47,258 nt of DNA from a bacterium (GTDB lineage Bacteria > Patescibacteriota > Minisyncoccia > JBDRLZ01): the NCBI GenBank assembly GCA_043812555.1, contig JBDRLZ010000017.1, positions 1 through 47,258 on the forward strand, given 5' to 3'. Made by a program: the position numbers and the translations under genes. The stretch's first letter is position 1. Every line of letters starts with the position of its first letter. This document shows positions 1,890 to 44,268 of the stretch, piece by piece. Under the pieces are notes generated by a model. That model saw nothing but the letters and a program-made list of their open reading frames with translations, was not told the DNA's origin and ran no database searches.

Positions 1890-1943
1890 GTCTGTGGATA
1901 ACTTTTTCGCAAGAAACTGCAATTTGTGTTAAAATTAAAGCAA

Positions 1944-26609: not shown

Positions 26610-26666
26610 TATTCTTTCTGTGGATAAACTCCTCCCCTTTTCCACTCCCCCAGCCCCACTCTTGGC

Positions 26667-34035: not shown

Positions 34036-34446
34036 CTATTTTACTTTAATTCTATTGTTTAATTCGACCTTTATTAAGCAAATTGCTTTTTTAATTTGCC
34101 CAATGCCTTTGTTAATCCCCTGGTCAATAATCTGCCCTAAACTCAACTCTTCGCTTGGATTATCTTTGCCAGAATTATGTTTTGGCCCGCCTGCCGACGA
34201 GGCAGGCTTTTGTCTAGCTTTCTTCTTGGTTTTTTTCTTTAAAACTTTTGGCTTTTTCTCGTTTTGGCGAGTGACTTTATAGCAATCTCGGCCCTGCAAT
34301 TTTTCAATAAGGCCCTTTTTGTCCAAACCAGCGCAAATAAGGCGAGTATAATCATTACTAATTTTCATCTGCCTAGCAATCCATTGAACAGGAGCTTCTC
34401 CCTTCTTTTCTAAAATTTTTTCCAAAATCTCTTGTTCGGTGGTCAT
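34036..34446 (-). CDS. winged-helix DNA-binding protein with a lysine-rich tail, inside the gvp cluster
   Basis: Has a PVQWIARQMKISNDYTRLICAGLDKKGLIEKL wHTH-like segment and the basic tract KKPKVLKKKTKKKARQKP. Confidence 0.45.
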   Translation of the reverse strand: MTTEQEILEKILEKKGEAPVQWIARQMKISNDYTRLICAGLDKKGLIEKLQGRDCYKVTRQNEKKPKVLKKKTKKKARQKPASSAGGPKHNSGKDNPSEELSLGQIIDQGINKGIGQIKKAICLIKVELNNRIKVK

Positions 34447-36399: not shown

Positions 36400-36430
36400 A
36401 ATGCTTAATGCTTAATGCTTAATGCTTAAT
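36400..36430. repeat. heptanucleotide tandem repeat (AATGCTT) x 4.4
   Basis: Read directly. It lies in the 52-nt spacer between the zinc-finger gene stop (36440) and the 129-aa gene start (36387). Confidence 0.9.
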
Positions 36431-36439
36431 TTTCGACCT

Positions 36440-36757
36440 TTAATAATTTCCAATTTCTGGCAATCCAGTATCAGGACCCAAGCCCTTCTTGCCTTGTCTT
36501 CTATCTTCTGGCATTACGCCTTTGCCTTTGCAAACCGAACAAGGTAATCGGTGATGAGCAAAAACTCCTGTGCCATTACAAGCTGAACATGTTTCATGGG
36601 GAATATCAGCTATAGTAATCTTGCCTCTGCCTCCACAGACCTGACAGCTAGAAAGCTTTGAAGGAACTTCAAAAGGATCTTTGCCCTTGCCATGACAAAA
36701 AGCGCAGATAATTTTTTTAAATTTTATTGTTCTTTTTTTGACCATAAGTTTTTCCAT
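36440..36757 (-). CDS. stand-alone DnaJ-type zinc-finger protein (four CxxCxGxG repeats)
   Basis: Has CAFCHGKG, CQVCGGRG, CSACNGTG and CSVCKGKG in 105 aa, with no J domain. Confidence 0.7.
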   Translation of the reverse strand: MEKLMVKKRTIKFKKIICAFCHGKGKDPFEVPSKLSSCQVCGGRGKITIADIPHETCSACNGTGVFAHHRLPCSVCKGKGVMPEDRRQGKKGLGPDTGLPEIGNY

Positions 36758-37340: not shown

Positions 37341-37547
37341 TTAAGCGGCAGTGGCAGTAAGACCAACAGCTTCGGCATATTTTAGCCAAGTCTCAACAGA
37401 AGCAATTACTATTCGGGCTTCAATTGCCAAGAGTTCAATGCCAACCAAAGAAACTCTTACCCAGGCGTCAATAACAATGCCTTTGTCAAGAATTCGGTCA
37501 ATTACTTCCACTAAACTAGAGCTAGATACTGCTTTTTCTACAGCCAT
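37341..37547 (-). CDS. gvpA: major gas vesicle structural protein GvpA
   Basis: [55 protein letters not shown] is a near-canonical GvpA core. SD AAGGAGG lies 6 nt upstream. Confidence 0.95.
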
Positions 37548-37572
37548 GTTTTTCCTCCTTAATTAATAATAA

Positions 37573-37689
37573 TTAAAAAAACCCTCCTCGACCAAAAGGG
37601 TTACCCAAATACAAAAATCCGCGAGCTTTGCTTACTCTCTCTCTCTCTCTCTCTGATAAAACTTTATTTTCCTCCATTTTTTCCTCCAT
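37573..37689 (-). CDS. candidate leaderless 38-codon upstream ORF in the gvpA leader
   Basis: The ATG lies 8 nt after the -10 element. It reads MEEKMEENKVLSERERERVSKARGFLYLGNPFGRGGFF. The ORF spans the (AG)10 tract and the hairpin and stops in the T-run. Confidence 0.3.
   Translation of the reverse strand: MEEKMEENKVLSERERERVSKARGFLYLGNPFGRGGFF
37580..37602 (-). promoter_or_regulatory. terminator/attenuator-like hairpin followed by a T-run, just upstream of the gvpA SD sequence
   Basis: The minus strand reads AACCCTTTT-GGTCG-AGGAGGGTT (9 bp including two G-U pairs), then TTTTTAATT. Confidence 0.45.
37635..37654. repeat. dinucleotide microsatellite (CT)10, which is (AG)10 on the gvpA strand
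   Basis: Read directly. It lies 88-107 nt upstream of the gvpA ATG. Confidence 0.95.
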
Positions 37690-37690
37690 T
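37667..37690. repeat. perfect 12-nt tandem duplication TTTTCCTCCATT x2
   Basis: Read directly. On the gvpA strand it reads AATGGAGGAAAA x2, which gives two in-frame ATGGAGGAA starts. Confidence 0.9.
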
Positions 37691-37697
37691 GATTTCA

Positions 37698-37725
37698 AGT
37701 ATAACATACCCTATTACTTTGCCAA
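37698..37725 (-). promoter_or_regulatory. candidate gvpA promoter TTGGCA-N16-TGtTATACT
   Basis: The -35 is at 37720-37725 and the -10 at 37698-37703, with an upstream TG. It overlaps the last codons of the truncated glycosyltransferase ORF. Confidence 0.45.
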
Positions 37726-38241
37726 GACAAAATCTGTGGATAACTTTTTGTAAATCCTTAAAATTTCTTTAACTTTTTCTCCGGCAATTATAATTTTTTC
37801 GGTTTTTATTTTATGGGTTTTTATTATTTGTTTTCGCAGTTTTTTTGAATCAACAATAATTTTTTTGGCTTTTCTGGCGATCTGCTTCTGCAAAGAGCGC
37901 TCTTTGAATTTTCTTTCTATTTTCCAGAGATTTAAAATTATTTTTCCCGGATAAGTTAAAGGCGCTGTTCCTGATGCGGCATGGAAAATATCTAATCTTT
38001 CTTTGGCTAAAAATGCTGAAACTAAAATCTGTGAATAAGCATAGCTGACAAATTTTCTGTATCTGGAAAATGGGAAGTATTTAATTTTTATATTTTTGGC
38101 TTGATATTTTTCAGCTTGATCCTTGGGAATGCGCGAGTCAAAAAATAAAACATACTGATTGCGTTTATCAAGCTTAACTAAAGCGCTCAATAAACGCTTA
38201 ACATAGCTATTTAAAATTCGTGCGTCAATCCCAATTTTCAT
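37714..38241 (-). pseudogene. glycosyltransferase family 4 N-terminal domain only (C-terminal catalytic half missing)
   Basis: MKIGIDARIL... is a typical GT4/GT1 N-terminus. The ORF ends after 175 aa without the EX7E-containing domain. Confidence 0.45.
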
Positions 38242-43845: not shown

Positions 43846-44268
43846 TTATTGCCCCTGCTGGAAGACTTGATTTTTTATTTTTTCTAAAATCATCGTTGTG
43901 CTTTGTTCCGCAAAACAAGGAAGTCTAATAATTTTACCCTTAAACCCCTTGTTTTTCAAAGCTTTTTCTAATTTTACAATGTCGAATTTTTGATCAAATC
44001 CCAGAACTAATATATCGGGATTAATATCTAAAATTGTTTTGTATTTATCGCCATTTGGGCCGATAAATGCTTTATCAACGGGCTTAAGCGCTTCAACTAA
44101 TTCCACTCTTTCCTCCTGGGAATTAATTGGAATGCGTTTCTCCTCCTCACAAACCTTGTCACAAGAAACAAGGACTATCAGCTCGTCCCCAAGACTTTTC
44201 GCTTTCTGCAAAAAATGTAAATGACCAATGTGGATAATATCAAAGACTCCCGTAGCTAAAATTTTCAT
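43846..44268 (-). CDS. cytidylyltransferase-family nucleotidyltransferase (TagD/RibL-like, HxGH)
   Basis: MKILATGVFDIIHIGHLHFLQKAKSLGDELIVLVSCD. 140 aa. Confidence 0.7.
   Translation of the reverse strand: MKILATGVFDIIHIGHLHFLQKAKSLGDELIVLVSCDKVCEEEKRIPINSQEERVELVEALKPVDKAFIGPNGDKYKTILDINPDILVLGFDQKFDIVKLEKALKNKGFKGKIIRLPCFAEQSTTMILEKIKNQVFQQGQ

Follow-up and report, generated by a model that had tools for sequence, protein, structure and literature searches.

A length-polymorphic simple sequence repeat in the gvpA leader of a Patescibacteria gas-vesicle operon: a candidate frame-dependent attenuator

The window analyzed here is the whole 47,258-nucleotide (nt) stretch of contig JBDRLZ010000017.1 (assembly GCA_043812555.1), a part of a metagenome-assembled genome of Patescibacteria (candidate phyla radiation, CPR). 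It carries a gas-vesicle (gvp) operon with the gene order gvpA, a 175-residue protein, a 105-residue protein with a DnaJ-type Zn finger, a 129-residue protein, gvpN, two gvpF/L genes, and a gvpJ/K fusion. The subject of this work is the leader of gvpA, and in particular an (AG)10 simple sequence repeat (SSR) within it. All leader features are read on the minus strand. The first gene of the operon, gvpA (37341–37547; 68 residues), starts with the ATG at 37547 and is preceded by the Shine-Dalgarno (SD) sequence AAGGAGG (37554–37560). A predicted sigma70-type promoter, TTGGCA-N16-TGtTATACT, occupies positions 37698–37725, with the -35 hexamer at 37725–37720 and the -10 hexamer at 37703–37698. It has 10 of 12 consensus matches and a TG extension, and a scan of 2.5 kb ranked it among the top two promoter-like matches. 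The first ATG of an upstream open reading frame (uORF; 37573–37689; MEEKMEENKVLSERERERVSKARGFLYLGNPFGRGGFF) is located at 37689, 8 nt past the -10 hexamer, within a perfect 12-nt tandem duplication (AATGGAGGAAAA x2; 37667–37690) that doubles the uORF start. The uORF then crosses the perfect (AG)10 tract (37635–37654), which is the presumed hypermutable element and the sole dinucleotide repeat of at least five units in the window. Further downstream lies a 9-bp stem-loop, AACCCTTTT-GGTCG-AGGAGGGTT (37580–37602; three G-C, four A-U, and two G.U pairs), for which the same 2.5 kb offered no second terminator-like site, with a T7 run (37575–37581) right behind the stem. This anatomy had been outlined in an earlier sequence-only reading of the same DNA, and every element was found at the place given there.

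The uORF comprises 38 codons from ATG 37689, as had been claimed. Its stop codon (TAA 37575–37573) overlaps the final T of the T7 run, so the claim that the uORF ends in this run was correct, but the distance to AAGGAGG is 12 nt and not 13 nt. A second in-frame ATG at 37677 is located 5 nt after its own GGAGG SD sequence, and leaderless initiation is therefore not required. Read from the sequence, the tract, which lies downstream of the predicted promoter, sets by its length where the uORF would end relative to the hairpin, and this point differs among the three frames. The (AG)10 frame reads through the stem into the T-run. The (AG)11 frame, like that of (AG)8, encodes a short peptide and ends at TAA 37634–37632, immediately 3′ of the tract and 32 nt before the 7-bp stem core, whereas the (AG)9 frame ends at TAA 37603–37601, the AA of which forms the first two stem bases. 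Relative to the end of the SSR, the three stops are located at +0, +31 (stem foot), and +59 (past the stem). The frame arithmetic of the sequence-only reading was thus reproduced. Its statement that only the observed frame carries ribosomes through the stem proved too strict, as the (AG)9 stop sits on the stem foot. A ribosome paused at this stop would cover the 5′ arm, and therefore two of the three frames would bring a ribosome onto the hairpin. The window probably has one short frame and two stem-reaching frames, as do its relatives. The "ERERER" translation shared by relatives was rejected as a sign of a conserved frame, since (AG)n gives alternating AGA and GAG codons in all three frames.

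Related loci (124 in number, designated by L-numbers) were retrieved by GvpN in reference genomes, by GvpA alignment in metagenomes, and by exact GvpA sequences in public assemblies. A perfect SSR occupies the corresponding part of the leader in about 30 related Patescibacteria gvpA loci; it ranges from (AG)6 to at least 27 AG units or is made up of (AC)n(AG)m, (CA)n, or poly-G. The AG tract has 10 units in the window, 11 in L089 and L001, 9 in L002, L009, and L110, 10 in L049, and 17 in L016. Other unit types are the compound (AC)x(AG)y of group B, (CA)5A(CA)5 in L084, and G12 in L019. Because the unit type changes between lineages, it is the mutability that is kept and not a sequence motif, purine or otherwise. 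Within the clade that has the 175-residue protein gene, the leaders follow a common plan. A sigma70-type promoter (often with TGn) is followed by an ATG 6–12 nt past the -10 hexamer, which opens a short ORF over a perfect SSR. Next come a stem-loop and its T-run, a hairpin with the GGTCGA loop, and an A-rich stretch before gvpA. The spacing of 6–12 nt between the -10 hexamer and ATG was found in the window, L089, L002, L009, L084, L110, L121, and groups A and B. In all 14 lineage representatives, an ORF that starts with ATG extends to the SSR, compared to ~48% of shuffled leaders. The module is always co-oriented with gvpA and directly upstream of it, even where the genes farther upstream differ.

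The association of SSRs with gvpA was quantified in the unbiased set L001–L088. Nine SSRs were found in the 47 kb that lie within 650 nt upstream of gvpA, compared to three in the other 438 kb, which is a ~28-fold enrichment (Poisson p = 8e-11). Two of these three fall just beyond the 650-nt limit, in the same intergenic regions. The nearest relative of the window is L089, with 97% identity in GvpA, 90% in the 175-residue protein, and ~89% in the leader. It retains the window promoter as TTGGCA-N16-TGcTATACT and a diverged copy of the 12-nt duplication. The sequence collections contained no further alleles of the leader type of the window, as identity of at least 90% to the 175-residue protein was seen only in the L089, L113, and L114 loci. 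Exact-sequence look-ups of the window GvpA, the 175-residue protein, and the Zn-finger protein returned no contigs from an index that lacks the window's own record.

The sequence-only reading had proposed slipped-strand changes of the repeat, and the relatives were examined for tract-length polymorphism. Such polymorphism was present in many lineages, including contigs that are otherwise base-for-base identical. The contigs L091 and L092, which come from different samples, show no substitutions in ~1374 aligned nt and differ only in the tract, (AG)11 vs. (AG)6, and in a C7 vs. C8 run. The group A members, which have identical flanks, carry (AG)6 (L092), (AG)7 (L090), (AG)8 (L095), (AG)11 (L091), and (AG)12 (L104). 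In group C, L098 has (AG)7 and L094 has (AG)10, with two substitutions in 800 nt besides the 6-nt SSR indel. L121 and L122 carry (AG)9 and (AG)10, total tract lengths in group B are 20, 26, 32, and 34 nt, and L111 and L112 contain ~25 and at least 27 units. Alleles of 6–12 units with identical flanks were obtained from independent JGI, ENA, and Logan assemblies. The contigs of L016, L107, L111, and L112 begin at the tract or no more than ~11 nt from it, and that of L097 begins ~10 nt past it. Such contig starts fit length heterogeneity within samples. A break at an SSR was also suspected for L015, L020, L026, L035, and L038, whose contigs start near -350, and was rejected, as these contigs do not break at an SSR and belong to other lineages. 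Overall, we are highly confident that this SSR is hypermutable, maintained by selection, and linked to gvpA.

The lengths of the alleles are not evenly distributed among the three frames. The short frame was found in 11 of 19 distinct alleles, where one third would be expected (p = 0.024, a modest bias among loci that are not fully independent). The (AG)11 allele of L089 is in this short-peptide state. Within groups, tract lengths mostly differ by 6 nt (20/26/32, 16/22, and 12/24 nt). Such a pattern would be expected only with a role of the reading frame, for which the frame bias and the 6-nt steps provide modest evidence.

A second polymorphic SSR was observed in the relatives, namely a poly-C/poly-G tract between a divergent XRE-type helix-turn-helix (HTH) gene and the uORF promoter. 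It is found in L090 (~2147–2154), L091, L092, L095, L123, L106, L001 (2756–2768), and L049 (280–289), with lengths of C7, C8, C10, G10, and G13; the C7 vs. C8 difference between the otherwise identical contigs L091 and L092 is in this tract. The window has neither the divergent HTH gene nor the poly-C/G tract.

In nearly all relatives, the tract is followed by a terminator hairpin of approximately -8 to -16 kcal/mol with a T5–7 run, and the hairpin has -11 kcal/mol or stronger except in the poly-G locus L019. Its foot is located at +54 to +57 from the end of the SSR, also in L084 and L019 with their different repeat types. All 12 base pairs are kept across 13 unique sequences. The changes among these, one compensatory from GC to AU and many switches between U.G and U.A, are consistent with a structure formed by the sense-strand RNA. 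In most relatives, the hairpin occupies +57 to +83 and the stops of the three frames are located at +25, +66, and +71; one stop thus lies 29 nt before the foot and two lie inside the hairpin. The predicted pairing probability of the hairpin or terminator was ~1.0 at every tract length (n = 6–14), and no competing helix was found. Because folding is insensitive to n, the tract length must act by something other than RNA folding, and a switch based on RNA alone was rejected. Pairing of the (AG) tract with the 5′ arm of the terminator as an antiterminator was also rejected, as inspection revealed at most 4–5 bp. The folds gave no mutually exclusive helices of the kind seen in amino-acid-sensing attenuators (trp/his type), and the leader peptide has no codon run apart from the ER repeat imposed by the SSR. 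A duplex of the hmw1A type was likewise not found: the folds contain only weak, shifting pairs for the tract, and the leader offers no complementary pyrimidine partner.

The window hairpin is of a different kind. The sequence-only reading had described it as terminator-like, and folded alone it reached -10 kcal/mol (z = -2.1; 6 of 200 shuffles as good), but the whole leader did not stand out from shuffled sequences (z = 0.05). The 7-bp stem core accounts for -6.9 kcal/mol. Its loop and 3′ arm correspond to the conserved GGTCGAnnAGGG element, with GGTCGA at 37593–37588. Relatives share aaaGGTCGAnTAGGGCa, with the 5′ arm GCCCTAG 14–22 nt upstream. The arms covary among the relatives (GCCCTAGT/ACTAGGGC, ATCCTAA/TTAGGGT, GTCCTAG/TTAGGGC, and CTTCCCGG/CTGGGGAG, compared to AACCCTTTT/AGGAGGGTT in the window). 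Where the leader is uninterrupted, the GGTCGA core precedes the gvpA ATG by 36–49 nt in most lineages. The covarying stem around this gvpA copy of the motif indicates that the region is transcribed as RNA. The half-site spacing, or loop length, varies from 5 to >100 nt among relatives and the arms use sense-strand G.U pairs; a protein operator formed by the GGTCGA inverted repeat is unlikely for these reasons. Only in the window and L089 is the loop collapsed to GGTCG, and only there does a T-run (T7 and T5, respectively) follow the GGTCGA stem. The GGTCGA hairpin may have taken over the role of the terminator in the window/L089 lineage. Searches of the leaders of the window, L089, L090, and L002 against Rfam gave no family match at gathering thresholds or relaxed E-values, the best matches scoring 11–16 bits vs. 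family thresholds of 40–50.

Among the mechanisms considered, the best supported is that the SSR works as an attenuator that depends on frame and ribosome, similar to that of the Streptococcus gallolyticus pil1 locus, and we assign it a probability of roughly 0.55. According to this mechanism, the element would be a contingency locus, and the slippage-prone (AG)n tract inside the short leader ORF would be transcribed from the sigma70-type promoter just upstream of gvpA. Replication slippage would alter the tract in 2-nt steps and shift the leader ORF among its three frames. In the short frame, the ribosome would stop soon after the tract, the stem-loop with its U-run would form behind the RNA polymerase, and most transcripts would end before gvpA (low or OFF state). 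In the other frames, the ribosome would run onto or through the stem and block its formation, and transcription would enter gvpA and the rest of the operon (high or ON state). In the window, the terminating ribosome would also be released 12 nt before the gvpA SD sequence. The (AG)10 of the window is the predicted read-through allele and the (AG)11 of L089 the predicted short-stop allele. The outcome would be heritable, reversible cell-to-cell heterogeneity in buoyancy, for which the tract probably serves as a random on/off switch. We infer the translation of the uORF, termination at the hairpin, its suppression by the ribosome, and the identity of the ON frames from this arrangement. Phase-variable attenuation had been suggested by the sequence-only reading; tract polymorphism, the conserved leader design, the pil1 precedent, and the plausibility of leaderless initiation speak in its favor. 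The strength of the window terminator and the claim of a sole promoter are not secure.

The precedent of pil1 is a close one. In S. gallolyticus, a (GCAGA)22 repeat lies inside a 38-residue leader ORF; when in frame, the peptide ends 39 bp short of a terminator, and the majority state, Pil1-low, results (Danne et al. 2014, PMC3894217). The out-of-frame alleles stop within or after the terminator, where the ribosome prevents formation of the stem and gives the Pil1-high state (PMC3894217). This mechanism was proven with start-codon, stop-codon, and terminator-deletion mutants (PMC3894217). As in pil1, the SSR of the gvpA leaders lies wholly inside a short leader ORF downstream of the predicted operon promoter (38 codons in the window), and the structural gene is separated from the leader ORF by a stem-loop that has a U-run. 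The short stop again lies well before the terminator (39 bp in pil1, ~29 nt in relatives, and 32 nt in the window), with the shifted frames ending within or after it, and short-stop alleles are more frequent than the others. Both systems have a divergent regulator gene upstream, TetR in pil1 and XRE in most relatives. Unlike pil1, the sequences described here are non-homologous to it, belong to another phylum, and precede a gas-vesicle operon instead of a pilus operon. Instead of (GCAGA)22, they contain a tract of 12–55 nt that consists of 2-nt units, a homopolymer, or (CA)n, and several lineages have a leaderless-type uORF start, whereas pil1 has a ribosome-binding site. The window terminator is also weaker (-10 vs. 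-18.7 kcal/mol) and overlaps the conserved GGTCGA element, and the gvpA system is predicted from sequence.

Other known systems share individual features. In the pyrBI operon of Escherichia coli, a ribosome translating the leader ORF through the attenuator blocks the terminator, and UTP is sensed via polymerase pausing. The gvpA leader resembles pyrBI in that its leader ORF overlaps the terminator hairpin, read-through would need a ribosome close behind the polymerase, and no antiterminator helix is needed. The input would be a heritable SSR frameshift, while that of pyrBI is not mutational. In Helicobacter pylori, the genes sabA, oipA, and hopZ contain CT/AG repeats in their 5′ coding regions and are switched ON and OFF by slipped-strand changes of frame near the start codon. 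The AG/CT dinucleotide unit and the frame change near a start codon are common to these outer-membrane protein genes and the gvpA leader, but the H. pylori repeat truncates the structural protein, whereas the repeat described here is located in an upstream leader ORF and leaves gvpA intact. In Haemophilus influenzae, the heptamer SSR in the 5′ untranslated region (UTR) of hmw1A forms an arm of a long hairpin that is processed by RNase III, and expression is inverse to repeat length (PMC12721329). An SSR that is transcribed in the 5′ leader is common to the phase-variable hmw1A and, as predicted, to gvpA. Unlike in hmw1A, no pairing partner was found for the tract, folding is indifferent to n, and allele lengths follow a reading-frame pattern.

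Recurrence of the GGTCGA element within the operon bears on the question of whether the uORF promoter is the only promoter of gvpA. In 153 kb of clade loci, the motif AAGGTCGR was found in 78 sense-strand copies (41 unique contexts) and in no antisense copy. Its copies occupy gaps that precede gvpA, gvpN, and other gvp genes. The next ATG is always at least 36 nt away, and in 23 of the 41 contexts the distance is 36–55 nt. In the window, a second AAGGTCGA copy (36433–36440, minus strand) lies 53 nt before the ATG of the 129-residue gvp protein, and a third copy (34064–34071, minus strand) lies 46 nt before the ATG of a 106-residue protein. Examples in relatives are L001 5948, L002 2687, 3355, and 5386, L089 3618, and L100 4232. 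The lower bound of 36 nt equals the minimum distance between the -35 hexamer and ATG of a leaderless mRNA, which makes a promoter or activator site a possible role of the motif. In the gvpA leader, GGTCGA is followed after 16 nt by TATTAT (37566–37571, minus strand), a hypothetical -10 hexamer from which gvpA would have a proximal promoter. TATTAT is also the predicted -10 at the PIN and DnaJ-domain genes of the window. No conserved -10 at a fixed spacing was found after AAGGTCGR/AAGGTCGA, where the information content was <0.25 bits throughout. Alternatively, the motif may be a signal for processing or for the binding of a protein. The sequence-only reading had stated that there is no room for another promoter and that gvpA transcription must pass the hairpin; this is not secure, as GGTCGA recurs at a -35-like distance and is followed by N16-TATTAT in the window.

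A perfect (ATTAAGC)4 repeat (36403–36430, minus strand) follows the second AAGGTCGA copy in the 52-nt gap between the genes of the Zn-finger protein and the 129-residue gvp protein. L089 has AAAATT-type filler instead of this repeat, which is a possible second variable repeat inside the operon.

Several observations weigh against the attenuator. The transcription start site of the window leader, the translation of its uORF, and termination are predictions. By its folding energy, the window hairpin is weak as a terminator (7–9 bp, -7 to -10 kcal/mol), and it is homologous to the GGTCGA-loop element and not to the strong terminator of the clade. Both the window and L089 lack this strong terminator, and the homologue of the GGTCGA element is their sole stem-loop; in other lineages, the GGTCGA-loop element is distinct from the terminator and is followed by an A-rich sequence. 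The gene gvpA may have its own proximal promoter, in which case the SSR would only modulate expression and not fully gate it. The allele bias toward the short frame is modest, and a frame open to the terminator is not improbable by itself (an estimated ~0.7 per lineage), for which reason it was not counted as evidence. The loci L003, L115–L120, and L124 contain gvpA without the SSR module, and other promoters must therefore exist. In L001, the module and gvpA are ~450 nt apart, with further hairpins between them.

Some of these points would be explained if the SSR-containing ORF and its terminator were a unit insulated from gvpA, and the gvp genes were transcribed from their own promoters, marked by AAGGTCGA and served by an alternative sigma factor or an activator. 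Tract length would then change only a small peptide or, at most, a minor read-through component. Such an arrangement agrees with the exclusively sense-strand AAGGTCGR copies before gvpA, gvpN, and other gvp genes, with a motif-to-ATG distance that has the -35 geometry of leaderless or short-leader mRNA, and with GGTCGA-N16-TATTAT in the window. It also agrees with the persistence of the GGTCGA element in SSR-less lineages and with the strong terminators and 450 nt between the module and gvpA in L001. However, we regard it as unlikely, because the motif is not followed by a conserved -10-like signal and its gvpA copy is located in the loop of a covarying stem with G.U pairs, which points to a transcribed RNA structure and not to an operator. 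Moreover, the module always adjoins gvpA in the same orientation despite differing upstream genes, and a free-standing peptide with a C-terminus scrambled by frameshifts has no obvious function. An effect of the tract as a part of the 5′ UTR that is independent of translation is rather improbable. The repeat would then alter the length, structure, processing, or stability of the leader RNA, and output would scale with length, as in the hmw1A model (PMC12721329). The location of the SSR downstream of the predicted transcription start site is compatible with this, the translation of the uORF is only predicted, and the conserved AAGGUCGA loop might be recognized by a protein or mark a site of processing. 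But the predicted structures remain constant with n, the tract has no pyrimidine partner, and the variation of the unit type (AG, AC, CA, or G) by lineage argues against a specific RNA motif. The modulo-3 pattern of allele lengths and the early ATG with an open frame to the tract in every lineage also argue against it.

Frame dependence could also arise by translational coupling, where no termination is involved and the frame decides whether a ribosome arrives at the gvpA ribosome-binding site to melt it or to re-initiate. The long-frame stop of the window, 25 nt before the gvpA ATG and 12 nt before the SD sequence, is suitably placed for this. In L002, the long-frame stop overlaps the gvpA start, and the longer frames of L053 stop 2 and 22 nt before the ATG. 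The window terminator is weak, and some of the SD sequence can be paired to the U-run in a weak AU hairpin. In most relatives, by contrast, the long frames stop inside the terminator, at least 100 nt before gvpA, which is too far, and their terminators are strong and conserved. Coupling as the only mechanism thus has a low probability, but it can also act alongside attenuation in the window lineage. The explanation that we disfavored most is that of a neutral microsatellite or an assembly artefact without a regulatory role. Intergenic SSRs may persist by chance, and metagenome assemblers can mis-size repeats. Nevertheless, the ~28-fold enrichment of SSRs upstream of gvpA, the persistence of perfect tracts where the flanks diverged or were replaced, the fixed spacing between SSR and terminator, and the recovery of 6–12-unit alleles with identical flanks from independent JGI, ENA, and Logan assemblies make it very improbable.

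A broader hypothesis, which we consider somewhat less likely than not, combines the attenuator with the AAGGTCGA motif. CPR bacteria would bet-hedge buoyancy by SSR contingency loci, in which a leaderless-type leader ORF gates a terminator before gvpA, and clones would always be a mixture of vesiculate and non-vesiculate cells. This switch would be superimposed on a hitherto unrecognized cluster-wide, strand-specific AAGGTCGA control element that coordinates the gvp genes, either as a new class of promoter or activator site or as an RNA-processing signal. To our knowledge, phase variation has been described almost entirely in host-associated pathogens. A full-text search of a literature collection found no report of an SSR switch in Patescibacteria or of gas vesicles with SSR phase variation. 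If the attenuator is real, no phase-variation system would have been described in CPR before it, and gas vesicles would have their first SSR switch. Ultra-small uncultured bacteria of groundwater and sediment would split their populations into floating and non-floating cells by stochastic switching, which would bear on the dispersal and host finding of episymbiotic CPR cells. The leader-peptide SSR attenuator, proven in one streptococcal pilus locus, would then extend to a distant phylum, with leaderless initiation and interchangeable repeats. The cluster-wide AAGGTCGA motif is a separate lead into CPR gene regulation.

The sequence-only reading had noted the same spacing between the -10 hexamer and ATG at other genes and suggested leaderless translation. 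This claim holds: 13 ORFs of at least 60 residues have an ATG 4–10 nt past a sigma70-like -10, compared to 0.4 in shuffles. Their ATGs are located at 1944, 2393, 11229, 15029, 17514, 18755, 27021, 27627, 30601, 38475, 41421, 45805, and 45847, and they include the genes of a class II aminoacyl-tRNA synthetase, PolX, a DnaJ-domain protein, L27, L9, GrpE, and a PIN protein. Judged from these promoters, leaderless mRNAs seem to be routine in the window organism, although gvpA has a strong SD sequence, and a leaderless start of the uORF is therefore plausible. The uORF start was found to be tandem-duplicated by 12 nt in two separate lineages, as ATGGAGGAAAAA x2 in the window and L089 and as ATGAGAATTTCA x2 in group C and L106. 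Each duplication yields two in-frame ATGs, and the first copy in the window supplies the SD sequence for the second ATG.

A DnaA-box-like motif, TTATCCACA (37735–37743, minus strand), is located 9 nt 5′ of the -35 hexamer and forms the 5′ edge of the conserved module. The homology between the window and L089 begins at this box, and the genes farther upstream are unrelated. The DnaA-box consensus (TGTGGATAA/TTATCCACA) occurs in four copies in the window (1893–1901, 26619–26627, 37735–37743, and 44229–44237), compared to roughly 0.4 expected (an estimate for a 9-mer on two strands). In relatives, a copy of the box adjoins the divergent HTH gene. Upstream of the module, the ORF at 37714–38241 (minus strand; 175 residues) corresponds only to the N-terminal part of a GT4 glycosyltransferase, with a Pfam score just under the cut-off. 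The conserved edge of the module is formed by the final 11 codons of this ORF, and the same tail ends the TsaD ORF in L089. This ORF is probably a truncated gene at a rearrangement junction.

The ~100-residue protein encoded two genes after gvpA (36440–36757, minus strand) has DnaJ-type CXXCXGXG zinc fingers and a weak Anti-TRAP match. It occupies this position across the Patescibacteria clade and is not a standard gvp gene product. In three lineages, a palindromic element resembling repetitive extragenic palindromes or miniature inverted-repeat transposable elements (AAAAGCCCTTAATTGTRGTTGG ... CCAAC ... AATTAAGGGCTTTTTT) lies between the promoter or SSR module and gvpA (L001 3137–3260, L003 3530–3650, and L124 ~120–330); L003 and L124 have no SSR module. 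Long SSRs were also observed at more distant gvp loci. L053 contains (CT)14 in a uORF (147–174), and its longer frames are those ending 2 and 22 nt before the gvpA ATG. In L024, (AC)5(AG)10 (1165–1194) is located 2.8 kb upstream of gvpA, where a histidine-kinase-like ORF has its 3′ end, and in L032, (CT)19 (394–431) lies at the 5′ end of an ORF that would have 117–151 residues in the other frames.

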